A stretch of 57,857 nt of DNA from a virus (taxonomy: Duplodnaviria; Caudoviricetes). Positions 14,979-34,096 of this stretch are shown here, one piece after another (position 1 is the first letter of the stretch; every line of letters begins with the position of its first letter). Both the position numbers and the translations under genes were made by a program. The notes beneath the pieces were generated by a model. The model was not told where the DNA came from, did not search any database, and was given only the letters and a program-made list of their open reading frames with translations. The stretch lies in IMG/VR virus record IMGVR_UViG_3300043607_000048, positions 1 to 57,857 of that record. One strand, 5' to 3'.

Positions 14979-15701
14979 TCATTGCAACTGCACACCGCGC
15001 CAGAGACGTAGGGCCATCGTTTCCTTGGCTGGCATCACCGGCCCGAAATCGCTCACCATCGTGCCGTTTGTCCAGTAGCACGGGCCAAAATTCGTCATCA
15101 GTGGCAGGCCGTTCGAATAAATGATCGAGACAAATTGGGCGTTGTTGAACCAGTTGGTGACGGTATATTCGTCCTTCCAATCCGCGCCGTTGGTTGAGCT
15201 TTGGAACGTCATCACCGCCGTGTCCCAGTCGTTGAGCTGGGTGATTTTCCAATCTGGCATTACGAGCGCCGGGCCGTTGGTGTCCATGCCGAAGACGAAA
15301 TTTGGATTCGGCGGCGGGTTGGTGACTGGCGGGTTTCGAGTTGTCGGCGGCAGGCTCGGCAGCTTCTTGCAGAGCTTCCAAAGCCCGTAAACGATGATCG
15401 CGCCGACAATGAGGATCGCGCAACCAGCGAGCACCGCCGAATCTTTTTCAGGAGGAGGAGGCGGCTGTTCCCCGGCCTGCGCCGGTGCCAGCGCCAGCGC
15501 CCCGCACAGGATCAGCGCCACAATGGCTTTGCTTTTTATCAACGCCGCCAGCGCCATTGAGAACGCCAGCGCATTCATCAGCATGAAGCCGTAAATGACA
15601 ATCCGATAATCGTTAAAGCACGAAAGGACGGCTAGAACGAGCGCGTAGAACAGTGTCCCGGCAAAGAATTTCCACAGGGGTTTAATCGAAGGGGTTTTCA
15701 T
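14979..15701 (-). CDS. Multi-pass membrane protein with soluble C-terminal beta domain
   Basis: About four hydrophobic segments, Pro-rich linkers, FQSSTNGADW motif; ATG at 15701 lies downstream of a promoter-like site. Confidence 0.6.
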   Translation of the reverse strand: MKTPSIKPLWKFFAGTLFYALVLAVLSCFNDYRIVIYGFMLMNALAFSMALAALIKSKAIVALILCGALALAPAQAGEQPPPPPEKDSAVLAGCAILIVGAIIVYGLWKLCKKLPSLPPTTRNPPVTNPPPNPNFVFGMDTNGPALVMPDWKITQLNDWDTAVMTFQSSTNGADWKDEYTVTNWFNNAQFVSIIYSNGLPLMTNFGPCYWTNGTMVSDFGPVMPAKETMALRLWRGVQLQ

Positions 15702-15779
15702 ATTGACTCGTTTCTTACACCCGGCGAAAAGATTTTGCAAGTAAAATGTTGACATGCAAGGCTTACATGATTTACAGCT
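15702..15779. promoter_or_regulatory. Divergent promoter region with operator-like inverted repeat
   Basis: Plus strand TTGACA at 15749; minus strand TTGCAA-17-TAAGAA; inverted repeat CATGCAAG-G-CTTACATG at 15753-15769. Confidence 0.55.
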
Positions 15780-16046
15780 GTGCCCGTGATCGTAAAAAAT
15801 AAAGCTTTGTGCGAGCATTGCGGCGGGACCGGGTTCATTTGGAAAGTCGATACCAAGTCACTTACAGCGACTCGGCTGGAGGCTGGTCTAACGCTCCGTG
15901 ATATGGCGCAAAGGGGTGGAGTTTCTCACTCCTATCTCCACGATGTTGAAAACGGTCATCGGCACTGCACATTGCGCGTAGAGGAGATGTATTCGAATTT
16001 GGTCAGCATCCGTAAACAAACAACCAAAAAGAAAGGTAAGCGATAA
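15780..16046 (+). CDS. XRE/Cro-type HTH regulator with N-terminal CxxCxGxG
   Basis: RLEAGLTLRDMAQRGGVSHSYLHDVENG matches HTH_XRE; CEHCGGTG. Confidence 0.85.
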   Translation: MPVIVKNKALCEHCGGTGFIWKVDTKSLTATRLEAGLTLRDMAQRGGVSHSYLHDVENGHRHCTLRVEEMYSNLVSIRKQTTKKKGKR

Positions 16047-16324
16047 TGCCTCCACAACCAGAAGACCTGCCCGGCGTAGAGGGCGAAGGGGTCAGTCAGC
16101 AAAAGAGAATCAAAGCGGTCGAAGAAGCCTTCGGCGATTTGCTCGCTCACCGCGCCAAGCGCATGAAGGCGGGAGAGAATGAGCAAGCCTCCTCGGCTGT
16201 CCTGACGGCGCTCTTTCACAAGCACAACCTCAAACATTACTTTTACGATGACGTGAAGTACATGCTGCAAGGGAAAGAGAAGATCATCAAAGCGCCCAAA
16301 GATGTTGACGTTGACGGCGAGTGA
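16046..16324 (+). CDS. Hypothetical protein
   Basis: TAATG coupling to the HTH gene; protein-like composition. Confidence 0.6.
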   Translation: MPPQPEDLPGVEGEGVSQQKRIKAVEEAFGDLLAHRAKRMKAGENEQASSAVLTALFHKHNLKHYFYDDVKYMLQGKEKIIKAPKDVDVDGE

Positions 16325-16328
16325 TTTA

Positions 16329-16625
16329 TGCGGGGGCGGTCGGCGTGAGGAGCGTGCGTCACTACGCCGTTCGCTGGCTGTCTCCGCGCCAGAATTCTTA
16401 TGATGCGAAAACGCCAGTCGGCAACGGCTGGCTGAGTAGTGTGAAAACCTCAGTGTCAGTAAACCCTAACAACTCAGTGGCGGTGATTTTGCTCGGCGGG
16501 TGTAACGCTGTGTTTGATGCCCGCCCACGGCCCGGCGTGACAGCAACCGGGAACTATTTTAGCGTGAGCGGTGGACTGGACCCCCATTCAAATCCTTTGC
16601 CCGGTACCCTCCGGGACGCTTGCGT
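16329..16625 (+). ncRNA. Candidate structured non-coding RNA region
   Basis: Consecutive G.U-rich stems (GCGGGGGCGGTCGGCG/CGCTGGCTGTCTCCGC; GCCAGTCG-GCAA-CGGCTGGC; GCGTGAGCG/CGCTTGCGT) between two clear genes. Confidence 0.45.
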
Positions 16626-16637
16626 GATTTCAAAACT

Positions 16638-16952
16638 ATGAAACTGGATCGTAACTTAAACCTGAACGGGCGCGGCAAGTACGCGCTGATCAAACTGCGT
16701 GAGGTTCACCATCTCGTTGAAAGCGCAAACTCTCACTGCACGCCGATTTACGAGCTGCCCGTTCACGTGGTTGACTTCGGCAACAGTCCGGGGACTGATT
16801 TCTTCGTGATCCGGCTCAAAGACAAATACGCGGCGAAGGCGCTCACAGCTTACGCCTGCGCGGCGGCTGAGGATGATCCTGAGTATGCTGAGGAGATTCT
16901 GGAGCTGGCGCGCCGGGCTGAACTGCACCCTGACAAAAAGAAACCTGACTAA
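16638..16952 (+). CDS. Phage hypothetical protein
   Basis: GRGKYALIKLR...FFVIRLKDKYAAKALTAYA; ATG at 16638. Confidence 0.6.
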   Translation: MKLDRNLNLNGRGKYALIKLREVHHLVESANSHCTPIYELPVHVVDFGNSPGTDFFVIRLKDKYAAKALTAYACAAAEDDPEYAEEILELARRAELHPDKKKPD

Positions 16953-16956
16953 TCCC

Positions 16957-17124
16957 ATGATCATTAAACCGATCCGTAACTCCAAAGACGGTTTTAATAG
17001 AGCAACAGCGGTCAAAAAGGCTTGGTCGGAAGAAAGCTTTTTGAGCCTACTGTTAAGTTGCTACGCCTGTGAATTGCTGGAGAAGATCGAACGCAATACA
17101 CGGCATAGAAAGGTTAAGAAGTGA
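16957..17124 (+). CDS. Hypothetical protein
   Basis: ATG 4 nt after the previous stop; stop overlaps the next GTG. Confidence 0.4.
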   Translation: MIIKPIRNSKDGFNRATAVKKAWSEESFLSLLLSCYACELLEKIERNTRHRKVKK

Positions 17125-17399
17125 CACAAACCCGCGTCCTTCGTCTCGTAAAAAACTTGGTGGCGCTCCAGCCGATGCGCCGGTTTCGCTCCGAGTCAGG
17201 CATCCTGTTTGACATGGGCCGAAACGATGACCGGCTACAATGGCTCGTCATCAACATGAGCGAGCGCGCTTGGCGGCAGGGCAACGTCAAAAACGGTGAC
17301 TTGGTGATCGTGCAGAAAAGCGCCGAACACGTGCATGAATTCCCTGACGGGATTATCCTGACTGATGCAAAGAACATCCTCTTGGTGGTCGGACAGTAA
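17121..17399 (+). CDS. GroES/Cpn10-like co-chaperonin
   Basis: 92 aa; LRLVKNLVAL, mobile-loop SESGILF, VKNGDLVIV and terminal NILLVV fit the GroES pattern. Confidence 0.6.
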   Translation: MTQTRVLRLVKNLVALQPMRRFRSESGILFDMGRNDDRLQWLVINMSERAWRQGNVKNGDLVIVQKSAEHVHEFPDGIILTDAKNILLVVGQ

Positions 17400-17567
17400 A
17401 GCGAGGGAAGATGAGTTGCGGGTCGCTGAGGAGTATAAAACTCGCACCGCGATTGAGCGATTCAAAAATCGCCTGACAACCGCCCGATCAATGGAGCGCC
17501 GTCACCGCTACGGCAAAAAGATTCGGCAGCTACAGGCAAAGCTCGGTTACCTTTTGATCAGCAACAC

Positions 17568-17795
17568 ATGAGTGAGCAGGAGTACGATCGCGTTGTCAGG
17601 TGTCACCCGGAGCTGAGACTGCCGGAATACTGGAGACTCCACACCGATTTCAGGTTTAAGCTGATGGGCATGACTCCAGAAAATTTGATCGCCGGTCGCA
17701 GCGCGGCATTGATCGCCCGGGACGATCCATCAACTCCACTCAGCTCTTGGGAACGGCACGACTTAACTCCGCTCGGTGACTACAAAATCGTGTGA
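17568..17795 (+). CDS. Hypothetical protein
   Basis: Overlapping start/stop gene chain. Confidence 0.5.
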   Translation: MSEQEYDRVVRCHPELRLPEYWRLHTDFRFKLMGMTPENLIAGRSAALIARDDPSTPLSSWERHDLTPLGDYKIV

Positions 17796-18163
17796 GCCTG
17801 CAACTCCCCCTCATGAACACCCGGGGCATGTCGAGCGCCCGGGAGATGCGCAAGCTGCGCCGGGATCGGGAAGTCGAGCGGCTGAGGATAGAGCGCAAGG
17901 CCAAGGTGGTTTGCGCGGTCCAAAACTGGACTGAGGACGGCCTGCATTTCCCCGATGAAGACCGCAACTTCACCGTCTACGTTGGCAAATGCTGGATGTG
18001 CGGTCGGGACGGTGGTCACTGGCTCGCCAAATTCAAAAAGCCAACCGGCATCGTCTACCGAATCATCTGCAACAACGACAAGTGCAAAAACATGACGTCG
18101 GAATTGCCATCCTCCAAACTCGCCATCCAAAACTGGAAGGTCACTCAAGCGCTCCACAAATGA
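17792..18163 (+). CDS. Protein with Lar (restriction alleviation)-like zinc ribbon
   Basis: CWMCG...YRIICNNDKC...LAIQNW resembles the Lar CxxCG..C..C..AI..WN pattern. Confidence 0.55.
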   Translation: MSLQLPLMNTRGMSSAREMRKLRRDREVERLRIERKAKVVCAVQNWTEDGLHFPDEDRNFTVYVGKCWMCGRDGGHWLAKFKKPTGIVYRIICNNDKCKNMTSELPSSKLAIQNWKVTQALHK

Positions 18164-18453
18164 ACACCCTTGAAAAGTTAAAAAGCATTTTAGAAATTCT
18201 ATCGGCTGTGCAAATTCAGATCAAGGAGGAGCGTGAGCTGCACATCATGCAACTGGCGGCAATCTCCACGGCATCAATCCAGAACACCCGACAGAGCGCC
18301 AAGGCCCGCATTGATCAGTCCAGTCCCTACTGCACTCAGGCGTATCTGGATGTCTGCCGCGCCGTGGACCGGGAGATGCAGCATCGTGAGAATCTGGAAG
18401 CCGTGAACGAGGAAGCCGCTCACAAAGCGATGGAGAAAGATTTTAACACGTGA
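18160..18453 (+). CDS. Hypothetical helical protein
   Basis: ATGA overlap at 18160 (MNTLEKLK...). Confidence 0.55.
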   Translation: MNTLEKLKSILEILSAVQIQIKEERELHIMQLAAISTASIQNTRQSAKARIDQSSPYCTQAYLDVCRAVDREMQHRENLEAVNEEAAHKAMEKDFNT

Positions 18454-18656
18454 AAGACTGCCCCATCTGCGGCGGGGGACACCCGCGTAAAGGTCCGTTC
18501 CGGTACCGTGTCATCGGTCGCTTCCATGATCGGTCCGATCCTCAGGAGCTTGCCTCCAGCCAACATGAGCGCGGTGCTAAGGAGTTGCTCGAAAAGTTAA
18601 AGAGCTGGCCCGCGATTGATCCTGACTCGCTCACCATCAACGATTCCTTAGCGTGA
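18450..18656 (+). CDS. Small CxxC protein
   Basis: CPICGG; coupled start. Confidence 0.5.
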   Translation: MKDCPICGGGHPRKGPFRYRVIGRFHDRSDPQELASSQHERGAKELLEKLKSWPAIDPDSLTINDSLA

Positions 18657-18880
18657 AAGCTGTGGTGATCGAATGGCGCTGCAAGAGCCGATGGAAATAT
18701 CTTCCAACCGGTGACCTGAAATGGACCCGCTTTGGAAAGTCACCGGCCAACGTGGTGCGCGCTGCCGTGCGGCGGCTGAACAAGGGTGACAGCGTTTTCG
18801 AATACCGGATAAAGCCGCCCAAAGAAACCGTGCCGCTCTCCCCGGCCTGCCTGCCGCACTGTGACAACGATCCTTATTGA
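18653..18880 (+). CDS. Hypothetical protein
   Basis: GTGA overlap with the upstream gene. Confidence 0.5.
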   Translation: MKAVVIEWRCKSRWKYLPTGDLKWTRFGKSPANVVRAAVRRLNKGDSVFEYRIKPPKETVPLSPACLPHCDNDPY

Positions 18881-18883
18881 ACC

Positions 18884-19537
18884 GTGAGCCAGTGGATACT
18901 TGAAACTCCGTGGTACTGGCTTCCGCCAACCAAGATTAAAAAACTTATGAGCAACAACCAAATGGGCGCAGTCGCCGCAACCGCCGCCATCGCGCAAGAG
19001 CCGGTCACTCAAACCGTTCGCTTCTCCATCACCGGCGACACGGAAACTGATTTCATCGCCGCCATCATGGCCTGCTTTGAAGCGATGCGCTCGGAGCCGC
19101 ATCCCGCTCCGTCCACCGACAGCAACCGCATGGCGCAACGCGTCTGTGAATATCTCGCCGGGCGCTTCAAGGCTCAGGCTGAGGACAATGACAGAAGGGC
19201 GGATCGCCACAGTGAACCCGCAAACGATCAGCTCCGTGAATTGGCGCGCCAGCTTCGGGAGCAGGAGCATCGGGATTCTGCAAAAACTTGGGCGGGCAGC
19301 GCGGAGAGCCGCGTGACCAAATCCGAAATGGAACGGGCATCAACTCACGCAAAATCCTTGTACGAAAAAGTCAGGAGCAAGCCCGACATCAGCCCCGCTC
19401 AATCCGGCACCCATTCGCCGTCAATCATCCGGCCTGACTCTGCTGCTCCCTCAGATTCACCGCTCGGCTGTCCCGGAGACGGCTCCGTGCTCAAAGGACC
19501 GCCTCCCGGTGACTGGCTCGTCGCTGACAAATTCTGA
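18884..19537 (+). CDS. Hypothetical protein
   Basis: Last gene of the plus-strand block; its 3' end overlaps the convergent gene by 139 nt. Start uncertain. Confidence 0.5.
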   Translation: MSQWILETPWYWLPPTKIKKLMSNNQMGAVAATAAIAQEPVTQTVRFSITGDTETDFIAAIMACFEAMRSEPHPAPSTDSNRMAQRVCEYLAGRFKAQAEDNDRRADRHSEPANDQLRELARQLREQEHRDSAKTWAGSAESRVTKSEMERASTHAKSLYEKVRSKPDISPAQSGTHSPSIIRPDSAAPSDSPLGCPGDGSVLKGPPPGDWLVADKF

Positions 19538-20082
19538 CCGCGCAACGGAATCTCAGGAATTTCCCCATTTTCCTCTGGCCGCGAGACTGGACTACTTTCC
19601 GGGATCACCGGCGAATTTAGCCCATCCAGTACTCGAGCCGCTCCCGCCGCATCCCCATTGTCCAGCGCCTTCACGTACGCCGCCTCTCCCGGCAACGGCG
19701 CGCCGGTACCACCACGCTGTCTCTGCTTTCGCTTCCGGGCACGATCAGCCGCACGCTTCTGCTCCGCGTTGTTTATCTCCAAATACTTTGCCCCGTTCAC
19801 TACCTGATAACTGAACTGCCCCAACCGCACCAGCCGCCGCCCCTCACTCTCCGGTGTCCTGCTCTTGGGATCAGGCGCGCAAAGTTTACCAATCACCCGC
19901 TCAATTACCTCCTCCTTCTCCCCGATCAAAATGCAAAGCAGCTTCGGGTTCAGCTCCACCTGCGCCCCCACTGTCGCGTCACCCCGCATCTTCGTGATTA
20001 TGTAAGTCCAAACCGCAAACATCGGACTGCCCGCCCCCATCATGCTCCCCTCGTACATGCTCTCAAAAACTCTACCGTACAC
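19399..20082 (-). CDS. Replication initiator-like protein (N-terminal winged-helix type)
   Basis: GTG after GGGAG; YGRVFESMYEGSM...PDPKSRT..EGRRL..YQVVNGAKY followed by a basic R..RKRKQR helix, the layout of phage replisome organisers. Confidence 0.55.
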   Translation of the reverse strand: MYGRVFESMYEGSMMGAGSPMFAVWTYIITKMRGDATVGAQVELNPKLLCILIGEKEEVIERVIGKLCAPDPKSRTPESEGRRLVRLGQFSYQVVNGAKYLEINNAEQKRAADRARKRKQRQRGGTGAPLPGEAAYVKALDNGDAAGAARVLDGLNSPVIPESSPVSRPEENGEIPEIPLRGQNLSATSQSPGGGPLSTEPSPGQPSGESEGAAESGRMIDGEWVPD

Positions 20083-20383
20083 AGAAAGCTCCCTTCCAAT
20101 GCCGCCCGGCGCGCAACACACTCTCCGTCTTCGTCTGCCCCACCAAATTCTCACACCCCACCCGGCTCTCTACCTCCAGCCTCCCAGTCACCAATATCCT
20201 CACCCGATCCCAAAATCCTACCTCGCACCGCGAGACTACCGTCAACACGTCCACCCACTTCGACGGCAGCTCCGGCACCGGGCACGGTCGCCAAGGACAA
20301 AGCCGCCGCATTACCCGCTCCTTAAAACCCGGCTTCTCAGGCTGCGAAAATTGCCAGCTCCCATGCAAATTTGATGTGTCCAT
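20072..20383 (-). CDS. Hypothetical protein
   Basis: ORF overlapping the initiator start; FWDRVRILVTGRL. Confidence 0.5.
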   Translation of the reverse strand: MDTSNLHGSWQFSQPEKPGFKERVMRRLCPWRPCPVPELPSKWVDVLTVVSRCEVGFWDRVRILVTGRLEVESRVGCENLVGQTKTESVLRAGRHWKGAFCVR

Positions 20384-20650
20384 TTCTTACTACTTTTGTC
20401 ACGCTATGTCACACTGTCAACCGGAATCAACGTGACATCCCGGAATCTGCGGAATCACCCGGACGTGTCGCAATCGTCACGAAATGTCTCCCCTCAGAGG
20501 CAGAGGCATACTCAGGGGGAGTACAGAGGGGGATTTCACAGCGCCCGCACACCCAATTTCACGGGCTGAATCACCCCGGAAACGGTTTAGATAAAATGGG
20601 GGGTTGTGAAAAGGAGGCCCGGTCGCTCAGGTCCCCCCGGGGGTGGGGTC
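20384..20650. other. Candidate origin / packaging-terminus region
   Basis: Non-coding; repeated GTCAC and CGGAATC words; CCCCCGGGGG palindrome near 20634-20643; visible switch from C-rich to G-rich plus strand. Confidence 0.45.
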
Positions 20651-21049
20651 CGTGGGGACGGTCCCGTCCTGCGAAAGAGATTCCTTTCCTTTTTGTTCGG
20701 TCGTGGTCGTTGGCGGTGTCTCGCTGGGTGCTTCGAAGGTGATGAGTGAGGCAAGCTCTATCGGGTGTCTGGAGCGCGAACGCTTTAGCGCTTTGGCAAG
20801 CTGCACGGGGTCAAGGTCAGGCCGCAACTGCCCGGGAGAAGGAACACCGCGCCAAACCCGGATAGCGTCTCCAAGCACGGCATAAGCACGGGCAATGGTG
20901 GAGCGGACGACTGGCGTAGTTTTCCGGTCGCAGGCGTCTCTTACGAGCAAGTCCATGATGAGTCGGGCGTTGGAAACGATTTTGGCTTCGGATCGGTTTG
21001 GGCGTTTGCGTGGGGGTCGTGGCTTTGGGATTGGAGCGAGGGTATTCAT
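20627..21049 (-). CDS. Basic helical protein, possible terminase small subunit
   Basis: 140 aa with basic N-terminus, helical core and disordered tail ending at the CCCCCGGGGG site. Function inferred from position only. Confidence 0.35.
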   Translation of the reverse strand: MNTLAPIPKPRPPRKRPNRSEAKIVSNARLIMDLLVRDACDRKTTPVVRSTIARAYAVLGDAIRVWRGVPSPGQLRPDLDPVQLAKALKRSRSRHPIELASLITFEAPSETPPTTTTEQKGKESLSQDGTVPTDPTPGGT

Positions 21050-21139
21050 AGTGCGAGCGGTGGTACGTTGTTGAGCATCACCATTTGAGTAAGGTGTAGG
21101 GGCAATTAAGCTTCTGCAATACTGAAAGGCAAATTAGTT

Positions 21140-21304
21140 ATGCAATTCGAATTCATGTTTACGGTGGCGGGGCCGGTGATGGCCAAGGTTTGGGTGATGG
21201 AAGGCAGGTACCGGATGACTACGTTGGTGCCGGTGATGGAGTTGGAGCGGTTGAATGGAAAGGTGTGGGGCTGGTCGCACCTTGGGAAGCGGGGTGCCAA
21301 GTGA
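21140..21304 (+). CDS. 54-aa early protein (not in ORF track)
   Basis: MQFEFMFTVAGPVMAKVWVMEGRYRM...KRGAK; follows the leader motif and its stop overlaps the next GTG. Confidence 0.55.
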   Translation: MQFEFMFTVAGPVMAKVWVMEGRYRMTTLVPVMELERLNGKVWGWSHLGKRGAK

Positions 21305-21606
21305 GCGAGGTTAAGAGCGGTTGTCAGGTGCGTGCGGAGCGACTGACGGCAAAGACGTTGCGCATCTCGTACAATTACTGCGGCATTTGTGGTCATACGC
21401 CGAAGACAAATGCTGATGAGCCGAACTATGCTCCCATTCGTTGGTGGGACTGTGACGATGGGTGGAAAATTGGGACGTTGTGTCATTGGTGCCATGATGA
21501 GGTTGCCAACGCGGTACCTAAACCCGGTGATTTTGCTTTCGAGCGAACTAACGGGGTGATGGATCAGAGTGATACGGATGAGGATGAGACGATGGCGCTT
21601 GAGTAG
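21301..21606 (+). CDS. Zinc-binding early protein
   Basis: CGICG...LCHWC; probable GTG at 21301. Confidence 0.55.
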   Translation: MSEVKSGCQVRAERLTAKTLRISYNYCGICGHTPKTNADEPNYAPIRWWDCDDGWKIGTLCHWCHDEVANAVPKPGDFAFERTNGVMDQSDTDEDETMALE

Positions 21607-21686
21607 TCGCACGTTGAGCCGCTCGGGTTTGATTCCCGGGCGGTTGACCGTGGGCAATTCCGCTCACAAGAAACTGAAAGGAAATT

Positions 21687-21998
21687 ATGACAGCGTTTGA
21701 GATTAAGTTGGCGCGTCGGTTGGCGGCGTCGGATGAGGATTTGAGCCGGTACAATGATGACGTGCTCTTTGGGTGCGCGTGCTCGGATTTCGTTCACCCG
21801 GTCAACGTGTCGCTGGGGACTGTGGCTAAGCTGATGCGGTGGCAGTACGTTTGTTTCGACGGGTCGTGGGATGAAAACCTGTGGAATGAGGAGCTGTGGG
21901 TTTACAAGCGGCGAATCAGGATTGACGATATGAACACCGGTGAAGTCCAGACTTACTTGCGCGATGGCGTGCTCGCTGCGCTAAGGGGGAACGCGTGA
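21687..21998 (+). CDS. Hypothetical early protein
   Basis: ATG directly after the leader motif. Confidence 0.65.
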   Translation: MTAFEIKLARRLAASDEDLSRYNDDVLFGCACSDFVHPVNVSLGTVAKLMRWQYVCFDGSWDENLWNEELWVYKRRIRIDDMNTGEVQTYLRDGVLAALRGNA

Positions 21999-22393
21999 AG
22001 CTGATCGAACCTGTCATCATCACGCCGCGTCTATTGCCCGGCGTGAAAGTGGGGGATGGGTTTGTGTCCATTGAGTACGCCCGGCGTGATGGGCGCGATG
22101 GGCGCACGCGTTTTCAGTGGTACGTGGATTTGCCCGGGGGAAAGGAATTCGCTGGGGATGACCTGCAAAGCGGTTGCCAAGGTGGCTGCTTGCAAGGTGG
22201 GCTTGAAACCCTGCTTACGTTTCTCTCGGCGGCGGGGGATGCGTACGGCTTCACTCTCCGAACGGGCAGAGAAACGGAAAACTCGGAGCTGTTTCCGCAA
22301 GAGGTTGTGGAGTGGGCGTATCAATTCTGTGAGGAGCTGTCGTGGCTTCAAATGGAATTGGATGAGTCTGACGGTCTATTGATTGAGGAGTGA
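21995..22393 (+). CDS. Hypothetical early protein
   Basis: GTGA coupling; GDDLQSG...LLTFLSAAG...FP..VVEWA. Confidence 0.65.
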   Translation: MKLIEPVIITPRLLPGVKVGDGFVSIEYARRDGRDGRTRFQWYVDLPGGKEFAGDDLQSGCQGGCLQGGLETLLTFLSAAGDAYGFTLRTGRETENSELFPQEVVEWAYQFCEELSWLQMELDESDGLLIEE

Positions 22394-22468
22394 GTTTCGA
22401 GCGTGGCGCGCTTTCGGGCGCGTCCCTCTCGGCATTCAATAACGGGTGTCGTTAACTGAAAGGAAAAT

Positions 22469-22768
22469 ATGTTTACTCGAAAAGATTACATGGATGGACG
22501 GGTTACCCATGAACAGTACTACGGGCAGTACGTCACGCCGGGTCTGGTCAAGCTGGTCGTGGATCGGTTTGGGCTGGATCGCCTGTGTGCGTGTCCTGCC
22601 GGTGATCACTTCAACTCTATCCCTCTTTCAAGCTGGGATATGTTGACCCGGTGGATCGGTGTGAAGTGGGCACCGGATGACGGTGATTCATTGGCCGGGC
22701 GCGTGTGCATCCTGAAAGCGGCTGCGCGTGCGGCGGTTGCCGGGCATTGTGCTGGGGGTGCCAAGTGA
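22469..22768 (+). CDS. Hypothetical early protein
   Basis: After the leader motif; TRKDYM..THEQYYGQYV...FNSIPLSSWD..VCILKAAA. Confidence 0.65.
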   Translation: MFTRKDYMDGRVTHEQYYGQYVTPGLVKLVVDRFGLDRLCACPAGDHFNSIPLSSWDMLTRWIGVKWAPDDGDSLAGRVCILKAAARAAVAGHCAGGAK

Positions 22769-22974
22769 GCATCTTCAAACGCGGCAATCCTGATCCCGTG
22801 AGTGATCGGGAAAAGGTTCACAAAATCGTGCCGGTCGTCGGCGTGCATCGTGAGCACGCGCTTTGCTGGAATGGAGCTTTCCATTGTTGGTTTACGGAGA
22901 AAGATTCCGAAGTGACGTGTCGGGCGTGCTTGCACGTGTCCGAGGGTGGAAAGCCGGGGGAAGTCAATCCATAA
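22765..22974 (+). CDS. Small His/Cys protein
   Basis: GTG overlaps the upstream stop; H...HALC...VTCRAC. Confidence 0.5.
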   Translation: MSIFKRGNPDPVSDREKVHKIVPVVGVHREHALCWNGAFHCWFTEKDSEVTCRACLHVSEGGKPGEVNP

Positions 22975-23087
22975 TCGTTCGCGGGATGGAGAAACGATAA
23001 GCTTCACCTATGGCCAAGCATCACCCCTTGGCTATAGTAGAAGCCGATCAATGACGGTCGGTGGTTTACTGAAAGGAAAAGCAAGTT

Positions 23088-24146
23088 ATGAGAATTGGTG
23101 AGTTTGAAGATTTCTTCCGGCGTGCGCTGGTTAAGAAAAAGCGTGTCCTGACACTCGGCAAGCCCGGCGTCGGGAAAACATTCGTGCGCGAATCAGTGTG
23201 CAAGGCGCTGGGGTACGATTACATCGGGGTGACTGCCCCGTTAATGTCCCCGGTGAAAATCGGCGGCTACCCCCGTGCGCCATTGGTCGAGGGCGGGGAT
23301 GCAACTCATGCGCTGTTTGACGGGATCGCCCGGGCATTCCGCGCAACGAAACCTACCCATCTCCACATTGACGATTTGGGCATGGCGAACGGCGAAACCC
23401 TGAAAGCCATTGTTGACCTTGTGCAGTTTGGCAGGATCGACAATCGCACGCTCCCTGATTGCGTGGTCGTGGGCGCGTCATCAAATGACGTGGGGCACGG
23501 TGCTGACGTGCAGGGCATGATTGAGCCGCTCAAAAGCCGGTGGAATACCATCGTTGAAGTCGAGTGCTTCATTGACGATACGGTTATCTACGGACTGAAC
23601 AAGGGATGGCCAGCGTGTTTGCTCGGCTACCTTCGAAACGACAATGAAGCGCTCCATGATTGGAAACCTTCGAAGTCGATGAAGATTGACGGCGCGTGTC
23701 CCCGGGGATGGGAATACGTTGCGGAATGGATCAATGACGGCTTCGATGATCCTGAGGTTATCGCGGGTTGCGTCGGCAAGGGCCGGGCGACTGCTTATCT
23801 GGCCTACCGGGGTTTGGTCAACCAGTTGCCGGACATTAACGCAATCATGGCCGATCCTGAGGGCGCGCTGGTACCGGAAAAAGCTGACGTCAAATACTTC
23901 GTGGCGATGGCGCTCGCTTCGAAAATCAAATGCGGGACGTTTGGCCCGGCGTTGCGATACCTGAACCGGTTGCCGCAACCGTTCCGGGCATTCTCGGTGC
24001 GGGACGCTATCAAAGCGGAGTCAGCTAAGAGCAAGGCCGGTACTCTCCCGGACAACTATAAGCCGATCCACTTTGACCGTGACTATGTGGCATGGAGCTG
24101 CACAAAGGACGGTCAGGAGGTTGTCAGCGCTGCCAGCACCAAATGA
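23088..24146 (+). CDS. MoxR-like AAA+ ATPase
   Basis: Walker A GKPGVGKT, Walker B LHIDD, ASSN sensor, PLKSRW Arg finger, CPRGWE. Confidence 0.88.
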   Translation: MRIGEFEDFFRRALVKKKRVLTLGKPGVGKTFVRESVCKALGYDYIGVTAPLMSPVKIGGYPRAPLVEGGDATHALFDGIARAFRATKPTHLHIDDLGMANGETLKAIVDLVQFGRIDNRTLPDCVVVGASSNDVGHGADVQGMIEPLKSRWNTIVEVECFIDDTVIYGLNKGWPACLLGYLRNDNEALHDWKPSKSMKIDGACPRGWEYVAEWINDGFDDPEVIAGCVGKGRATAYLAYRGLVNQLPDINAIMADPEGALVPEKADVKYFVAMALASKIKCGTFGPALRYLNRLPQPFRAFSVRDAIKAESAKSKAGTLPDNYKPIHFDRDYVAWSCTKDGQEVVSAASTK

Positions 24147-24376
24147 AACCGCTAACGGAATCGGAGATACGGCAATGCCGGTACTGGTCTGCGCTGGTCC
24201 GGTCAGCTATGCAACTCGGGTTAGTTGATAAGTTTTGCCGATCCCGGGTGTTCGTTGACTGGTCAATGAGCGAAACCGGTTGGCGGGTCGTGAGAGCGCT
24301 AGGCGCTAGTGATCCCGCATTGCTAAAGGCGTTGTCCGAAGTGAGAGCGGCATTTCCCGTTTCTAAAAAGTGGTGA
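24143..24376 (+). CDS. Hypothetical protein
   Basis: ATGA overlap at 24143. Confidence 0.45.
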   Translation: MKPLTESEIRQCRYWSALVRSAMQLGLVDKFCRSRVFVDWSMSETGWRVVRALGASDPALLKALSEVRAAFPVSKKW

Positions 24377-24462
24377 GCTAGAGCGTGGTTGCCCGGTGTC
24401 GTTTGCCGGGCAATCCCTCTCTGTTCACAATGACGTGAGCGGATTACTGAAAGGAAATTATT

Positions 24463-24696
24463 ATGGAGCAATGGCAAATTGCTTGGGATAACGGTCACGC
24501 TTCCGGCGTGTTCCCGGTTATCTTCAAAACCAAAACAGAAGCCAGCAAGTACGGCGCGAATTGGAAGCGTGACATGGTGGCTTTAGAAGCTGATCCGAAA
24601 GAGCGAGCTGAGGCCCGGCGCGCTTACCAGTGGGAAGTGATCCCGTGGACGGTTCACCCATCGGGCCGGGCGGGTAACTCTCAATGGGGATACTGA
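24463..24696 (+). CDS. Hypothetical protein
   Basis: ATG after the leader motif. Confidence 0.6.
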   Translation: MEQWQIAWDNGHASGVFPVIFKTKTEASKYGANWKRDMVALEADPKERAEARRAYQWEVIPWTVHPSGRAGNSQWGY

Positions 24697-24697
24697 C

Positions 24698-25936
24698 ATG
24701 AACGATAAAACTCGAATGAAGCGAATAGAGCGCGCTCAAATGCGGGTGCTGTTCACGGTGCCGTTTTTCGCGCCGGGAGTGGTCAAGCTGCCGGTGGAGT
24801 TTGACGACAAGGTTGAGACGGCTTGCACCAATGGGGAGCGAATCCTTTTCTCTCCAGCGTTTTGTGACAAGCTCAGTGATCAGGAATTGGTGACCGTCCT
24901 GTGTCATGAGGTTTGCCATTGCATGTTTGGACATCTCTGGCGCGCTCCCGATCCCTGCAATTGGGACGTCTGGAATCAGGCAACCGATCACGCGGTCAAC
25001 CTGATGCTGAAAGAATTCAGCGCTGGGGTGATGGCAAAGGGTCTGGCCGATCCGTTCCCGTTCCCGCAACCGGAGTCGAATTACTGCATAGACCCTCAGT
25101 TCAAGGGCGTGGCCGAAGAAGCCATATACACCCGGCTTAACGTCCAGAAGCCCCCGGGCGGGTCTGGCGGGGGTCAAGGGCAGGCCGGGAGTGGAAAAGC
25201 CTCTCCTAGTGGCAATCCCGGCACGGGCCAAGGGCAGGGAAAGCCATTTGGTCAGATTGAAAAGCCCGCAAACCCGGGTCAACCGGGCGCAACCCAGTCA
25301 ACCAGCAAGCAGTTGCAGAATGATTGGACGGCTACCCTGCTCCAGTCGGCAAAGCTGGCGGCGGGTCAGGGTGATTTGCCCGGCTCCCTTCAACGTCTTG
25401 TTCAGGATATTGTGAATCCCAAAATTGATTGGGTGCAGGTGCTTCGGTCGTGGTTGCGGGAGCAATGCGCCGATGACTGGAATTGGCAAGCGCCAGCGCT
25501 GGAGCTGGAAGGCAGCGGGTTCATCATGCCGTCCCTCAAATCTGAGAAGATGGGGCCGGTCGTGTTTGGGTCAGATTGGTCGGGATCGACGTTCGGGGAG
25601 TTGGTCACCAAATTCCATGCGGAAAAAGTGAACTGTCTGAACGATATGCGGCCAAGCAAGCTCATAGACATCGGCTTTGATACCCGAGTCGTTTGGGAAA
25701 AGGAATATACGCCCGGTGACGTGATTGACAGTCACGTTGCCGGGGGCGGCGGTACGTCGTTTGTGGACGTGCTGAGGCGGTGCTCGGAATTGATTCCGGC
25801 ACCTAAGTGCGTGGTGATCCTCACTGATCTGATGGGTGAATTTCCGAAAGAAGCTCCCCCGTTCCCGGTCGTGTGGGTTGTCTACGGTGGTTTGGACAAC
25901 GCCCCTTTTGGGCAAGTGATTAACGCCGATGAGTGA
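24698..25936 (+). CDS. Metallopeptidase plus vWA protein (DUF2201-like), partner of the AAA+ ATPase
   Basis: TACTNG, HEVCH (HExxH), WNQATDHAVN; MIDAS-like DWSGS, GGGGTSF, LTD. Confidence 0.85.
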   Translation: MNDKTRMKRIERAQMRVLFTVPFFAPGVVKLPVEFDDKVETACTNGERILFSPAFCDKLSDQELVTVLCHEVCHCMFGHLWRAPDPCNWDVWNQATDHAVNLMLKEFSAGVMAKGLADPFPFPQPESNYCIDPQFKGVAEEAIYTRLNVQKPPGGSGGGQGQAGSGKASPSGNPGTGQGQGKPFGQIEKPANPGQPGATQSTSKQLQNDWTATLLQSAKLAAGQGDLPGSLQRLVQDIVNPKIDWVQVLRSWLREQCADDWNWQAPALELEGSGFIMPSLKSEKMGPVVFGSDWSGSTFGELVTKFHAEKVNCLNDMRPSKLIDIGFDTRVVWEKEYTPGDVIDSHVAGGGGTSFVDVLRRCSELIPAPKCVVILTDLMGEFPKEAPPFPVVWVVYGGLDNAPFGQVINADE

Positions 25937-26111
25937 AGCATCACCAAAAGGTAAAGGTATGCAGCATAGACTATGCTGGGCGCGCAACGTGGTGAAGAAG
26001 TTTGAAAGTGAACACTGGGAAACGTGGGATGAGGCGCGCCGGGCAGTTGCCCGAGAACGTTACGAGCGAGCTGTCGCGCTGATCCTGTACGACAAGCTGA
26101 AAAACTCTTAA
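25929..26111 (+). CDS. Hypothetical protein
   Basis: Overlapping start; ends just before a structured leader. Confidence 0.45.
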   Translation: MSEASPKGKGMQHRLCWARNVVKKFESEHWETWDEARRAVARERYERAVALILYDKLKNS

Positions 26112-26229
26112 CTCATTCAACCGCTAGGTGGTTCGGGTCAGTCGGTGACGGCTTTCCTTGCGGCATCATATAGCGGTTGACTGAGCCGGTCAGGAATTAA
26201 CCTGAACGGAATTACTGAAAGGAAAATAA

Positions 26230-27099
26230 GTGAATAGTTACAAGTTAAGTGAGAGAGCGGTACTGATGCAACTGAGCGCCGGGATGCCGGGCAAGCATCG
26301 TAAGGATCGGCAGTTGTCCGATCAGGTGAAGTCTGACAAAAACCTTGGTTCCCATTCCGGGTCGTGGATCAAAAACAAGTATCCTGAGTCAGCGCTGGAG
26401 CCGATTGAGAAGCTGGTAACGGCTGCGCGTGCGTATCACGGTGCGGTCACTCTGCCGTACGCGAACGGGATCGGGATTCTACCGGCTGCGCTGATTGCGG
26501 AGTACGGTGAGAAGATGCGGGAATTCGCCGGGCGGTTTGAAAACCTGCGCGATTCTCACTTCCGGGCGAAATACCCGGAGTTCATTGAGTGGGCGAAGAA
26601 GGAGCATAACGGCACGTTCGATGCCAGCGATTATCCGGAGGTCGATGAGGTTTGCAAAGCGTTCTACTTTCGGACTGAGCCGGTGCCGGTACCCGATGCC
26701 GCGCACTTCGAAACAACCGTCAAGAGCTTGCTCGGTGTCGATGCTGATAGCGTCAACATGCGCGTGCAGGATGCGATGGAAGAAGCTCAGAAAGAGCTGA
26801 TGCGCCGATTGATTGAGCCGGTCAAAGCAATGGCGGTGAAGCTGGCAGAGCAACCGAAAGAGGGAAAAGACTCCCCGGTGTTTCGTGATTCGCTGATCGG
26901 CAACGTGAAAGAGATTGCCCGGCTTGCGCCGAAGCTGAACATTGCCGGTGATCCCGCGATTGACAGCTTTGTGAAAGAGATGTCAGCGCTGATCAGCTAT
27001 GACGCTGATGCGCTCCGCAAGTCTCCTAACGCGCGGGAAAAGGCGGCGGAAGATGCCCGGGTGATTCTGGCGAAACTGGAAGGATACAAAGGATTCTGA
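26230..27099 (+). CDS. DUF3150-like helical protein of AAA+/vWA modules
   Basis: After the leader motif; TLPY..GI.ILP, F...DYP, FRDSLIGN, LNIAGDP. Confidence 0.6.
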   Translation: MNSYKLSERAVLMQLSAGMPGKHRKDRQLSDQVKSDKNLGSHSGSWIKNKYPESALEPIEKLVTAARAYHGAVTLPYANGIGILPAALIAEYGEKMREFAGRFENLRDSHFRAKYPEFIEWAKKEHNGTFDASDYPEVDEVCKAFYFRTEPVPVPDAAHFETTVKSLLGVDADSVNMRVQDAMEEAQKELMRRLIEPVKAMAVKLAEQPKEGKDSPVFRDSLIGNVKEIARLAPKLNIAGDPAIDSFVKEMSALISYDADALRKSPNAREKAAEDARVILAKLEGYKGF

Positions 27100-27105
27100 A
27101 CATTT

Positions 27106-27178
27106 GGGGGCCGGGGGTAGGGAGTCGGAAACGGCTCGGAGTAACTCCTAAGACGTAAACGTGACTATCACGGTCCCT
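27106..27178 (+). ncRNA. Multi-branched RNA element with GAAA tetraloop
   Basis: Closing stem GGGGCCGGGGGTAG/CTATCACGGTCCC enclosing GAGTCG-GAAA-CGGCTC, GGAG-TAA-CTCC and ACG-TAAA-CGT. Confidence 0.55.
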
Positions 27179-27189
27179 TTTTAAATTTT

Positions 27190-27450
27190 ATGGACACAAA
27201 CGAAAATCAACCAAGCCAGCATCAGGCCAACAAGGTGCTGCGCGTGTTCAAAGGTGAGCGCATGAAATACACGATGCGGCTTCACAAGCTTGACGGTACG
27301 ATCGTGGAATTTCAGTGTAACGAGATGCCCAAGGTGGAGTGGAACGATTCCCTTCGTCGGCCATTTCTTTCAAATCGGGACTGGTCCGGGCACCCCATTA
27401 CGGAATGGGAGCCGGGCATGATCCTGCTCGGTGAAGAAAATCCGAAGTGA
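27190..27450 (+). CDS. Hypothetical protein
   Basis: Single ORF between two structured elements. Confidence 0.6.
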   Translation: MDTNENQPSQHQANKVLRVFKGERMKYTMRLHKLDGTIVEFQCNEMPKVEWNDSLRRPFLSNRDWSGHPITEWEPGMILLGEENPK

Positions 27451-27456
27451 CCTTTT

Positions 27457-27652
27457 GTGTGTTTGGTGGTGGTGCCTGAAGTCGGAAACGGCTCGGGTCA
27501 CGTTGGCGAGTACGCCGATGAAAACCAAACATACTCCTCATTCTTATGCCCGGGTGCTTCTAGTCGGCAACGGCTGGGGCCAATCTAAGATTGTTCCGCA
27601 TCGCGGCTCTACGCGGGCATAAGACTGAGCCTGCCAGCATGAAGCTGGCGGG
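27457..27652 (+). ncRNA. Two tandem multi-branched RNA elements plus leader hairpin
   Basis: Stems GTGTGTTTGGT/ACCAAACATAC and TCTTATGCCCG/CGGGCATAAGA, each enclosing AGTCG-GNRA-CGGCT; then CCTGCCAGC/GCTGGCGGG. Confidence 0.6.
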
Positions 27653-27673
27653 TTAACTGAAAGGAAACGTTAG

Positions 27674-27907
27674 ATGAATACGATAGATGAAGCCTTTGTA
27701 AAAAAGGTAGAGGCCGCGCACTTCCGCACGGTCCACGATACGGGCGCAAATGAGAATGCGCTTTTGATCTGGAACATTGTCCGGGAACACGTGGGCTTGC
27801 CTTGGCTTAAAAAGTCGGACCTGCCGGTGTACTGCGAGACGCATGACACTTACCATTTGTTCCGGGACGGCTACGGCTGCAAACCTAGAACGGAGAGTGT
27901 CCAATGA
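27674..27907 (+). CDS. Hypothetical protein
   Basis: ATG after the leader motif. Confidence 0.6.
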   Translation: MNTIDEAFVKKVEAAHFRTVHDTGANENALLIWNIVREHVGLPWLKKSDLPVYCETHDTYHLFRDGYGCKPRTESVQ

Positions 27908-28125
27908 ATCCGAAAAATGATCCGTTGGTAAAATCTCTCCGCAAGACGTATAGGGAGAGCGCCGTGGGGCAAATCGAAACCCTGATAAAAGAGGAGCGCC
28001 GGTGGAAATCGAAAGAGACGCTGGCCAGCAACAAGCTGCGAGCGGTTCGGGATAAGATTGCCCGGGCGGCGGTCGTGCTGGCCAAGGGTGCCGATGCCCG
28101 GGGCGAAAGGGGGCAAATCCTGTGA
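27904..28125 (+). CDS. Hypothetical coiled-coil protein
   Basis: ATGA coupling. Confidence 0.55.
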   Translation: MNPKNDPLVKSLRKTYRESAVGQIETLIKEERRWKSKETLASNKLRAVRDKIARAAVVLAKGADARGERGQIL

Positions 28126-28421
28126 AAGAGCTTACTGAAATTGAAAAAGCCGCGATGCGGTTGCAGTCTGATTTTCAGGTCAAGATTGCGGAGCGTGCGG
28201 AGCGCGATATTAAAGGCTGGAAGAAACGCGTTACGCGAATGTCGTTCATCATGGACCTTTGCAGCGTGCCGGATTTGGATTTGCCCGCTCTGCTTGCTGC
28301 GCCAGCATTCGATTTCGCGCATGATGTGTGCGGTATCGTTCGGCACATGGATCGCGGTCATTATCCCGGAACACTAACGGACTGCTTTGTTCCTCGGTTT
28401 TCACGCGGGGGTGAGAAGTGA
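28122..28421 (+). CDS. DUF6874-like phage protein
   Basis: MDL...LDL..LL.A..FDFAHDVCGI.RHMDR...L..CFVPRFS. Confidence 0.65.
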   Translation: MKELTEIEKAAMRLQSDFQVKIAERAERDIKGWKKRVTRMSFIMDLCSVPDLDLPALLAAPAFDFAHDVCGIVRHMDRGHYPGTLTDCFVPRFSRGGEK

Positions 28422-28762
28422 GCCAATCATTCAACTGCCATTGCCCGGAGCGGCAGAAGCCGATTGAACGGCGCAACTGGGGCGTGAGTCAGCGTTACTC
28501 CCGGTGCTCCGCGTTTGACGGCTATCAAACAAAGTCCAGCGATTGGTCGTGCATCGTGTGTCTGTCGTGCAACATGACGGGCCGCACCAAAGCCGCGTAC
28601 GTGTCCCACCTGCCAGACCTGAGGCTTGGTGAGGGCGCGCAATGGGAATACGCCACACCGCAACCGCTCAGAGCGCCAACGCCGGAACAAGCCTGCTCGT
28701 TCTGCAAGCTGCCGTCACACCGCACGGAGAATTGTCCGTACATCCAGCGAGGTCCAAAGTGA
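28418..28762 (+). CDS. Cys-rich protein with C-terminal CCHC zinc knuckle
   Basis: CHC, CLSC, and CSFCKLPSHRTENC (CX2CX4HX4C). Confidence 0.6.
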   Translation: MSQSFNCHCPERQKPIERRNWGVSQRYSRCSAFDGYQTKSSDWSCIVCLSCNMTGRTKAAYVSHLPDLRLGEGAQWEYATPQPLRAPTPEQACSFCKLPSHRTENCPYIQRGPK

Positions 28763-29357: not shown

Positions 29358-29606
29358 ATGAAAAATTTAGGTAAACAGATTGTAGTTGTGGACAACGGTT
29401 TTGTTCACGTTGGAGATTGCTCTTTGAACGATGGGCTGCTTTGCATTGAAAATGCCAAGAACATTCGGAAATACGGTACGTCACAAGGGCTTGGTCAACT
29501 GGTGGCTGGGCCAATGAAAGAAACGGTTGCTGATGAGATGGGCACTCTCTTGGTTCCATTGGCGCGGGTTGTGTTTTTTCTTCGCGTGGTGGAGGGCTGG
29601 AAATGA
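29358..29606 (+). CDS. DUF6948-like small beta protein
   Basis: IVVVDNGFVHVG...NAKNIRKYGT..GLGQL..GP; adjacent to a Gly-repeat ORF, as is usual for this family. Confidence 0.6.
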   Translation: MKNLGKQIVVVDNGFVHVGDCSLNDGLLCIENAKNIRKYGTSQGLGQLVAGPMKETVADEMGTLLVPLARVVFFLRVVEGWK

Positions 29607-33263: not shown

Positions 33264-33538
33264 ACTGGTATTTTACAATCGCTGGTGGGCATACGCACGT
33301 GAGAGTTTTTTTAAACGGCGGCAAGTGCGGTGATCTGTGCTTCCGCAATGAGGAGTTTGAGCAAATCCAAGGAAAATCTACGGGGATAAACTTCTTGGCC
33401 GATGGCGAGCATCCGGTACCGGAGACTGGTCCCTGCGCGCACGATGAAGTGCGTTGGATGCCCGGCACAACTCGCACCGGGATCAAAGTCGGTCACTGCA
33501 TCGCCTGCGGTGAGCAAATCGAAATGGACCTGTCATGA
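33260..33538 (+). CDS. Hypothetical protein
   Basis: GTG after ACTGAAAGGAAA at 33246; C..H and CIAC. Confidence 0.6.
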   Translation: MNWYFTIAGGHTHVRVFLNGGKCGDLCFRNEEFEQIQGKSTGINFLADGEHPVPETGPCAHDEVRWMPGTTRTGIKVGHCIACGEQIEMDLS

Positions 33539-33681
33539 GCCTGTACGATGCTGCCCGGGATACGTGTCACTCAATGGGCCTGCCGTGGACTGATCGTAGA
33601 ACGGGGATCACTTACCCGCCGCCGCGTGCAAAGGTGCTGGAACGCCGCAAGCGCCGGGCCAAACAACGGAGGCGGAAATGA
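33535..33681 (+). CDS. 48-aa basic protein (not in ORF track)
   Basis: MSLYDAARDTCHSMGLPWTDRRTGITYPPP...RRRK; ATGA overlaps on both sides. Confidence 0.5.
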   Translation: MSLYDAARDTCHSMGLPWTDRRTGITYPPPRAKVLERRKRRAKQRRRK

Positions 33682-33904: not shown

Positions 33905-34096
33905 ATGACCCGCAAAAAATGGAATCGGCTCAGGCGGCAGCGCCCGGAGCTGTTTTACGGTTTTGCTAATACTTGCTGGGAGAGGATGAATCCAAAAGCC
34001 CGCTGGTGGATCGTAAGGCAGTCCAAGCGTGACATGATTGCCCGGCTCACGTCATTCACCCTCAACGACAAAAAGCGTTTGCCGGAATGGGAATAA
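33905..34096 (+). CDS. Hypothetical basic protein
   Basis: ATG right after the hairpin. Confidence 0.5.
   Translation: MTRKKWNRLRRQRPELFYGFANTCWERMNPKARWWIVRQSKRDMIARLTSFTLNDKKRLPEWE

Follow-up and report, generated by a model that had tools for sequence, protein, structure and literature searches.

Intercistronic folds with a repeated GNRA hairpin, a possible recognition tag, in an uncultured phage genome

A recurrent GNRA hairpin between early genes

The window analyzed here is the complete genome (57,857 bases, or 57.9 kb; CheckV 100%) of a tailed phage deposited in IMG/VR as IMGVR_UViG_3300043607_000048, and the element under study is a short hairpin, AGTCG-GNRA-CGGCT (AGTCGGNRACGGCT), that occurs five times between its early genes. 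The phage is uncultured and comes from soil and sediment. All five copies lie inside a block of plus-strand genes (~15780 to 38100) that includes genes for an XRE-type helix-turn-helix protein, a MoxR-like ATPase, a DUF2201 metallopeptidase/VWA protein, a DUF3150-like protein of 289 amino acids (aa), RecT, and an exonuclease, and minus-strand blocks, including the structural genes, flank this block on both sides. Contigs from four DNA runs that cover 15900-28100 are essentially identical to the window, and the hairpins and their surroundings show no differences among them.

A pattern search of the window for AGTCGGNRACGGCT returned 5 exact matches on the plus strand and 0 on the minus strand, and a repeated search of the whole record gave the same counts (5 forward, 0 reverse) with 0/0 for a backwards control. 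None of 100 dinucleotide-preserving shuffles contained any match (expected number 0), and relaxing the loop while allowing one mismatch added only five unrelated sites versus 4.6 expected. Among the GNRA hairpins with a 5-bp stem in the window (27 on the plus strand and 15 on the minus strand), only the one with the AGTCG/CGGCT stem recurs. The recurrence is real and non-random. The five stems are identical at the RNA level (AGUCG/CGGCU), the loops are GCAA, GUGA, or GAAA, and the third stem pair is U.G, which would read A.C on the opposite strand. The identical stretch extends to 16 nt in copies 1 and 5 and to 17 nt in copies 3 and 4, each pair having its loop and 2-3 flanking bases in common. 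Every copy is located between plus-strand early genes and outside conserved open reading frames (ORFs); the ORFs that overlap copies (16321-16641, 27431-27622, and 27457-27588) have no tblastn match in the closest relative, G001, whereas the flanking genes do. A preliminary description of this DNA, made from its letters alone, had given the same five positions and loops, had called all copies intergenic, and had stressed that the U.G pair is valid only on the plus strand; each of these statements agrees with our results, including the absence of minus-strand matches and folds that are mostly weaker on that strand.

The hairpins belong to no catalogued RNA family, as that description would require. 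Rfam 15 models gave 0 matches at the gathering score in the whole window, and when the cut-off was relaxed to E<=10 for 15800-28200, 6 weak matches appeared (E 2.6-7.1), all of them clear of the hairpins. No transfer RNA or transfer-messenger RNA gene was found in the window. A dispersed repeat of the REP (repetitive extragenic palindrome) or MITE (miniature inverted-repeat transposable element) type was rejected, because the copies are one-stranded, have only 14-17 nt in common, and are enclosed by closing stems of unrelated sequence.

To place the phage among its relatives, we used several searches. A megablast search with 15500-28500 against GenBank phages gave no match, and neither did a tblastn search with the terminase against 50,697 GenBank phage records; the phage therefore represents a lineage without a cultured relative. 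A terminase search of IMG/VR returned 12 contigs. The one close relative, G001, is 56,377 bp long, has terminal repeats and a terminase with 80% aa identity, and is syntenic with the window in reverse orientation at a DNA identity of ~65-84%; G002 and G003 are far more distant. Single-protein scans of IMG/VR with the 289-aa protein and a 412-aa protein returned no relatives, alignment-based scans of IMG/VR returned only G001 and two short contigs, and an alignment-based metagenome scan returned 11 loci in contigs. Distant relatives were recovered with the 289-aa and DUF2201 proteins as queries, and a scan of GTDB genomes with the 289-aa family gave one match, which is weak and partial.

Folded spacers and their recurring parts

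Copies 2-5 are each built into a larger fold, and these modules are listed with the other features in table 1. Region z-scores are -5.1 (26110-26232), -3.4 (27098-27192), and -6.5 (27449-27676), and those of the four individual modules range from -3.9 to -5.9, in agreement with the preliminary description that four copies sit within long closing stems of unrelated sequence. The plus-strand fold is 9-18 kcal/mol more stable than the minus-strand fold in six of the seven modules tested, the exception being the region of copy 1. IGR2 begins directly after the stop codon at 26109-26111 and rises from a CUCA-U...C-UGAG base with a U.C mismatch through a 10-bp stem into an irregular stem (free energy of folding, dG, -35.1, z -4.65; minus strand -23.1). 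In IGR3, which closes at 27106-27178, the hairpin is the first arm, and the closing stem is followed by a run of U that gives the module the look of a terminator (dG -33.0, z -3.92; minus strand -15.7, z +0.41); it is the only one of the five modules to end in such a run. The corresponding values are dG -37.6 and z -5.94 for IGR4 and dG -44.8 and z -5.15 for IGR5, in which the hairpin is again the first arm. The closing stems measure 11-15 bp and the GNRA arm 5-9 bp, and a length of ~20 bp or more is reached only if both stack. A mismatch at stem position 5 is present in IGR2 and IGR5 and missing from IGR3 and IGR4. The spacer of copy 1 (313 nt, 16325-16637) is not significantly structured (z -0.9; -0.7 when scored along with the modules). 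A hammerhead or other ribozyme core, CsrA-type GGA loops, and mimicry of CRISPR repeats were considered and dropped after inspection by eye, and a CCUAAG/UAUGG pair in IGR3, seen by eye as a possible 11-nt receptor for GAAA loops, was rejected for its lack of flanking helices.

Table 1. Coordinates of hairpins, modules, spacer elements, and candidate ligands (window coordinates unless another record is named).
Feature	Position	Strand	Description
Hairpin copies 1-5 (start, loop)	16416 GCAA; 26140 GTGA; 27123 GAAA; 27480 GAAA; 27562 GCAA	+	
Copy 1 hairpin	16413..16432	+	GCC-AGTCG-GCAA-CGGCT-GGC, own stem lengthened to 8 bp
Module IGR2	26112..26185	+	Rod-like; copy 2 (26140-26153, GUGA) at the tip
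Small GC hairpin and cassette	26186..26229	+	Hairpin 26186-26209, then cassette ATTACTGAAAGGAAA; GTG start of the 289-aa gene at 26230
Module IGR3	27106..27183	+	8-bp + 5-bp closing stem, four-way junction, three hairpins; copy 3 (27123-27136, GAAA)
Module IGR4	27457..27534	+	11-bp closing stem, three-way junction; copy 4 (27480-27493, GAAA) in the first arm
Module IGR5	27537..27629	+	CUCA-U...C-UGAG base like IGR2, 11-bp stem, four-way junction; copy 5 (27562-27575, GCAA)
Second GC hairpin and cassette	27630..27673	+	Hairpin 27630-27652, then cassette AACTGAAAGGAAA; ATG at 27674
Cassette sites	21673, 22455, 23068, 24446, 26214, 27656, 33246	+	
Second spacer hairpin family	22394-22468, 24377-24462		Also G001 (reverse-complement coordinates) ~54530-54620, 51250-51330; L054; L060
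HNH insertions	G001 (reverse-complement coordinates) 52765-53196; L051 2477-2872		
48-aa peptide	33535..33681	+	Arg-rich C-terminus; coupled to neighbors by ATGA overlaps
63-aa protein, candidate ligand	33905..34096	+	N-terminal 16 residues MTRKKWNRLRRQRPEL, an arginine-rich motif

The spacers that hold these modules have a regular composition. In four modules the distance from the preceding stop codon to the fold is 0-6 nt, and IGR5 instead follows IGR4. The base seen in IGR2 and IGR5 defines a family of CUCA-U...C-UGAG hairpins with nine instances in seven records, two of them in G001. Its 4-bp base is CUCA/UGAG with one change to CUCC/GGAG, the mismatch at stem position 5 is found in eight of the nine instances (U.C in seven and G.G in one), and the 10-13 further base pairs of the stem are quite different in sequence. 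A stop codon stands directly 5' of the hairpin in six of the nine. Distant relatives have a short stem-loop as the top, and the window and G001 alone bear the GNRA hairpin there. Downstream of both IGR2 and IGR5 a small GC hairpin is followed by a ribosome-site cassette, ACUGAAAGGA, which has the form (A)UUACUGAAAGGA(A/C)AAA and stands just 5' of the start codon. The cassette core ACTGAAAGGA has 7 exact occurrences in the window, all of them on the plus strand, and appears as ACTGAAAGGA(A)AA at gene starts; we observed that a small GC hairpin, with a loop close to CAAUNAC, usually precedes it. Cassette and loop are also found in G001 and in the distant records L050, L051, L054, and L056-L060. 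A scan of IMG/VR for ACTGAG-N18-45-ACTGAAAGGA returned at least 106 loci, none of which carries the hairpin among those listed; also among the listed loci, the five with two or more cassettes belong to unrelated phages.

Other observations on the spacers concern further hairpins and the exchange of genes. A second hairpin family has the form GAGC(A/G)NGG - GC hairpin - (U)CCCUCUC and is likewise followed by a small hairpin and the cassette. The sequence (A)AGCAUCAY recurs in the apical parts of spacer hairpins (window positions 21074, 23017, 25937, and 26166), and AGCATCA is not enriched overall in counts for the window (6 on the plus strand and 9 on the minus strand). G001 lacks the gene for a 77-aa protein (27674-27907), and both G001 and L051 have insertions of free-standing HNH endonuclease genes that separate the DUF2201 gene from the stop-codon hairpin, which the window does not have. 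The spacers are junctions at which genes are gained and lost. The 313-nt spacer of copy 1 has several blocks in common with G001 (GAGUAG, AAACCCUAACAAC, UUUAGCGYGAGCGGUGGA, and GACGCUUGCGUGAUUUC), and the gene downstream of it differs between the two genomes.

Conservation in relatives and candidate protein ligands

G001 keeps hairpins at three orthologous spacers: CGUCG-GUGA-CGGCG at the IGR2 spacer, UGUCC-GAAA-GGGCU at the single spacer that matches IGR4 and IGR5, and UGUCG-UCAC-CGGCU at the spacer of copy 1 (IGR1), where GUCG/CGGC is kept, the lower stem covaries, and 4 of 14 positions differ from copy 1. Because three copies have orthologs in G001, those sites predate the split from it; IGR3 and IGR4 have no counterpart there. 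Across the eight hairpins of the two genomes 38 of 40 stem cells pair, the central pairs G-C, U.G, and C-G (the GUC/GGC core) are invariant in all eight, and compensatory double substitutions are seen once in the outer stem pair (A-U to C-G) and once in the inner (G-C to C-G); in a covariation control, 23 of 500 shuffles reached the observed score, a modest outcome of the kind expected from so few sequences. Since the split, most positions of the closing stems that surround the hairpins have changed with pairing kept, and the internal architecture of the modules differs between orthologs.

Beyond these sites the motif was not found in the relatives that we searched. The exact form is absent from G001-G005, G001 carrying the variants at its three orthologous spacers, and AGTCGNNNNCGGCT with at most one mismatch gave matches at the level of the backwards control. 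GTCSGNRASGGC has 0 matches in G004, G006, and G007, and GTCS-GNRA-SGGC occurs neither in G002-G004, G006, or G007 nor in any of the partial contigs L050, L051, L056-L060, and L063. A covariance model of the hairpin, run over 247 kb of DNA from the window and relatives, scored only the 8 training copies above 20 bits; the next-best matches (18.9 and 17.9 bits) are in G002 and L054, both inside genes. The G002 match, which has the exact stem and lies inside a 188-aa ORF, was attributed to chance.

This pattern bears on the proposal in the preliminary description that the hairpin is a protein-binding tag, which it supports in part: the core is constant beyond the needs of pairing, and the closing stems are free to change. 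Conservation of the stem sequence beyond pairing fits a recognition tag, and paralogs that are identical while orthologs differ point to selection by a common reader. Sequence conserved beyond pairing together with uniformity within a genome is what the binding site of one trans-acting reader would show.

The ligand named in that description, the Arg-rich 48-aa peptide at 33535-33681, is not supported. It is encoded within a window-specific segment (33263-33905) that is missing from G001, which still keeps hairpins, and it has no homolog in G001 or in a collection of 5.8 billion proteins. Given the sequences, the 63-aa protein would be a better candidate ligand. Its N-terminal arginine-rich motif (ARM), MTRKKWNRLRRQRPEL, is invariant in all 11 family members found, which are otherwise 43-57% identical to the window protein, although the search was word-based and so favors matches that share words. 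G001 has the protein with two conservative changes, and among the DNA of the window and relatives examined it occurs only in these two genomes. It has no match in PHROGs, and a scan of GTDB genomes with the ARM family returned nothing. A motif this constant could just as well reflect a target that all these phages share, and not the hairpin. Directly upstream of the 63-aa gene we observed a terminator-like element with a large loop (33836-33904, plus strand), made up of a small hairpin within a closing stem of 14 bp and, after the stem, six U (z -4.5); its design is that of IGR3.

Several features elsewhere in the genome are recorded here in their own right. A long tandem hexanucleotide repeat (GGCTCC / GGCTAC) at 29603-29971 on the plus strand lies inside a 122-aa ORF that would encode a Gly-Ser/Gly-Tyr low-complexity protein. 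An identical 15-mer, GGGTGCCAAGTGAGC, occurs on the plus strand at 21292, 22756, and 31092 at the 3' ends of three genes (...Gly-Ala-Lys-stop), and the GTG at 31101 within it is the start of the exonuclease gene. The structural block contains an ORF of 2119 aa (38383-44742, minus strand) without a Pfam or PHROG match. At 8352-10918 on the minus strand, two methyltransferase-like ORFs (one of them below the Pfam cut-off) stand together with a radical SAM ORF, and this cluster may be a nucleic-acid or metabolite modification module.

Possible function and comparison with known systems

We infer the function of the hairpins from features observed directly, namely the motif, its strand bias and placement, the folds, and the conservation with compensatory change. 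The explanation that we tentatively place ahead of the others, at slightly less than even odds, is that intercistronic folds, which probably govern processing, stability, or termination, have gained a sense-strand RNA recognition helix. The hairpins would act as sense-strand RNA helices with a G-C, U.G, C-G core and a GNRA cap, lying within the spacer folds of a long early transcript of co-directional genes that is presumably made as a single message. The spacers could be regarded as "punctuation," consisting of a long stem at the stop codon, a variable branched top, and, in IGR2 and IGR5, the GC hairpin and cassette. Judging by their build, the modules most likely set where the message is cut, stabilized, or, at one site, terminated, a role that would be that of the RNase III sites in phage T7 early mRNA. 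The GUCG-GNRA-CGGC helix would then be an addition peculiar to this phage and the relative closest to it, recognized by one putative trans-acting factor that tunes the activity of the modules; such a factor could be an RNA-binding protein, encoded by the phage or by its host, or, with lower probability, an RNA tertiary partner. We read the helix as a recognition tag because its sequence is constant beyond pairing and the five copies are identical in unrelated surroundings. The element is an uncatalogued variant of phage intercistronic RNA signals with a sequence-constrained GNRA hairpin that probably serves as the tag.

A number of observations weigh against this explanation. Copy 1 has no significant larger fold, and its minus strand folds better. 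The shapes of the modules vary (rod, three-way, and four-way), and the hairpin does not stand in one fixed geometry to a putative cut site. The motif is carried by only two genomes, which makes the covariation in a 5-bp stem thin, and the tag is looser in G001, where the loop of one ortholog (UCAC) is not of the GNRA type and the outer U/U of two is unpaired. Distant relatives have plain hairpins at the same sites without the motif; these suffice, and the tag is therefore dispensable for basic module function. The identity of the five copies could also stem from recent short-patch copying and not from selection.

This last point belongs to the view that the hairpin is a purely structural cap, a stable folding nucleus or docking tetraloop whose identity among copies reflects recent copying of 16-17 nt. 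The copies do form two identical pairs (1/5 and 3/4) that share loop and flanking bases, IGR3 and IGR4 are recent given the lack of a G001 counterpart, the spacers are evidently places where genes come and go (the 77-aa gene; HNH genes in G001 and L051), and GNRA loops stabilize stem-loops, as described in PMC1540722. We nevertheless judge a mere cap to be unlikely, in view of three copies that predate the split, a GUC/GGC core and wobble that stayed invariant while neighboring stems changed, the fact that any paired stem would do and the U.G pair would be unnecessary, and a length of 14-17 nt that is short for homologous copying. The modules might instead be stand-alone small RNAs or decoys of 70-95 nt, excised or separately transcribed and acting in trans, for instance as a sink for a host factor or defense protein. 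Their compactness, long closing stems, and strong structure (z -3.9 to -5.9) are compatible with this, as are the tandem arrangement of two modules (27457-27629) and the lack of matches to known families. Except for the U-run after IGR3, however, no promoter- or terminator-like signals flank them, they border directly on stop codons and ribosome sites in the manner of cis elements, and their internal architecture is not conserved in orthologs, which leaves this a distinctly improbable explanation. Least probable, in our assessment, is a signal at the DNA level, either a hairpin of single-stranded DNA that serves priming or replication or an asymmetric site bound by a protein and comparable to the one-orientation "stoperator" sites of mycobacteriophages, although the motif is an intergenic 14-mer in one orientation with an imperfect inverted repeat. 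The conserved T.G, the GNRA-restricted center, and the flip from G-C to C-G argue for RNA pairing, the folds around them depend on G.U pairs and lose much of their stability on the opposite strand, and the sites cluster in the middle of the operon and not at a promoter or origin-like region. The RNA-level reading is well supported.

Processive antitermination of the boxB/N type, in which the hairpins would be nut-like tags and a small Arg-rich phage protein would bring about read-through of terminators, had been suggested in the preliminary description. The lambda nut site consists of boxA (CGCUCUUA), a spacer, and a boxB stem-loop bound by the ARM protein N, and nutL and nutR are described as differing only in one boxB loop position and the spacer (PMC2724277). 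A 5-bp stem with a GNRA-class loop, identical within the phage with a variable loop and different in G001, resembles this arrangement; moreover, the divergent junction has a single promoter-like site (15771-15800), with copy 1 ~600 nt downstream of it, IGR3 and 33836-33904 are long stems followed by U-runs, and the 63-aa protein, with an invariant ARM that contains Trp, is kept in G001. Much of what such a system should include is missing, however. No boxA (CGCUCUUA or UGCUCUUUA) stands a short spacer upstream of any of the five copies, and a boxA-like sequence (pattern YGCTCTTWA with at most one mismatch, 42 matches versus 30.6 expected) is found within 100 nt upstream of none of them, the nearest plus-strand match being ~200 nt upstream of copy 1 and inside a gene. 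Neither terminator-like sites (20 versus 22.6 expected) nor promoter-like sites (11 versus 7.9 expected) are enriched. Four of the five sites lie within 1.5 kb in the middle of the operon, two of them 82 nt apart, which is unlike a nut layout; the window loops are true tetraloops, whereas the lambda loop is a pentaloop; PHROGs and Pfam searches match none of the early proteins to an antiterminator family; and an ARM that is invariant across members 43-57% identical suggests a target common to those phages, the hairpin being confined to two records. Because boxA and terminator enrichment are both lacking, this reading is weaker than control of processing, stability, or termination, and a U-run after only one of the five modules does not support the earlier suggestion either; we regard it as unlikely. 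An intrinsic terminator as the general identity of the modules was rejected, given that single U-run and no enrichment in the region; termination control at particular sites, namely the IGR3 and 33836-33904 stems with their U-runs, is possible. A related proposal is a new tag-reader pair in which the U.G hairpins and a small phage protein, for which the 63-aa protein is the best candidate, switch "large-loop" terminators or processing sites. Such a pair would work like lambda N/boxB with an independent origin and without a need for boxA, and we consider it doubtful, more so than antitermination of the lambda type.

Returning to intercistronic modules that carry a recognition tag, phage early operons are often cut, stabilized, or read through by means of RNA signals, and we know of no such signals outside a few model phages. 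The lineage described here, from uncultured phages of soil, sediment, and freshwater, has a regular spacer grammar of stop-codon hairpin, small hairpin, and fixed cassette, to which one branch has added a sequence-constrained GNRA hairpin. If a dedicated reader exists, hairpin and reader would form a small orthogonal tag/peptide system for RNA, comparable to lambda N-boxB, and would give access to gene timing in this lineage; if there is none, the motif would be a clear example of structured spacers that are rebuilt while genes swap at the same junctions.

In comparison with the nut/N system of lambda, the hairpins have in common a 5-bp stem with a GNRA-class loop in early RNA, a stem that is constant within the phage while the loop varies, and a small Arg-rich protein encoded in the same operon. 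They differ in the lack of boxA, in a loop of 4 nt versus 5 nt in lambda boxB, and in number and setting, with five sites versus two that are mostly clustered and embedded in larger folds; in addition, terminators are not enriched here, and the candidate protein has no detectable similarity to known antiterminators.

The other comparison is with the RNase III signals of T7, the sites named R0.3-R1.3. In both cases structured hairpins lie between the cistrons of a co-directional early operon, all five copies here being between plus-strand genes and four of the five modules being without a U-tail. RNase III substrates are described as typically two helical turns in length, which coaxially stacked short helices are able to provide, and internal loops as able to limit cutting to one strand so that protective 3' hairpins remain (PMC1540722). 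The modules would likewise approach two helical turns if the closing stem stacks on the arm, IGR2 and IGR5 have a conserved internal mismatch in the stem, and the expected outcome would be cut, stabilized monocistronic pieces. Cleavage of the modules is putative. They differ in tops that are branched (three- or four-way) and not simple two-tier hairpins, in a mismatch that lies 4 bp from the base and not in mid-helix, and in the invariant GUCG-GNRA-CGGC helix, which RNase III substrates do not need.

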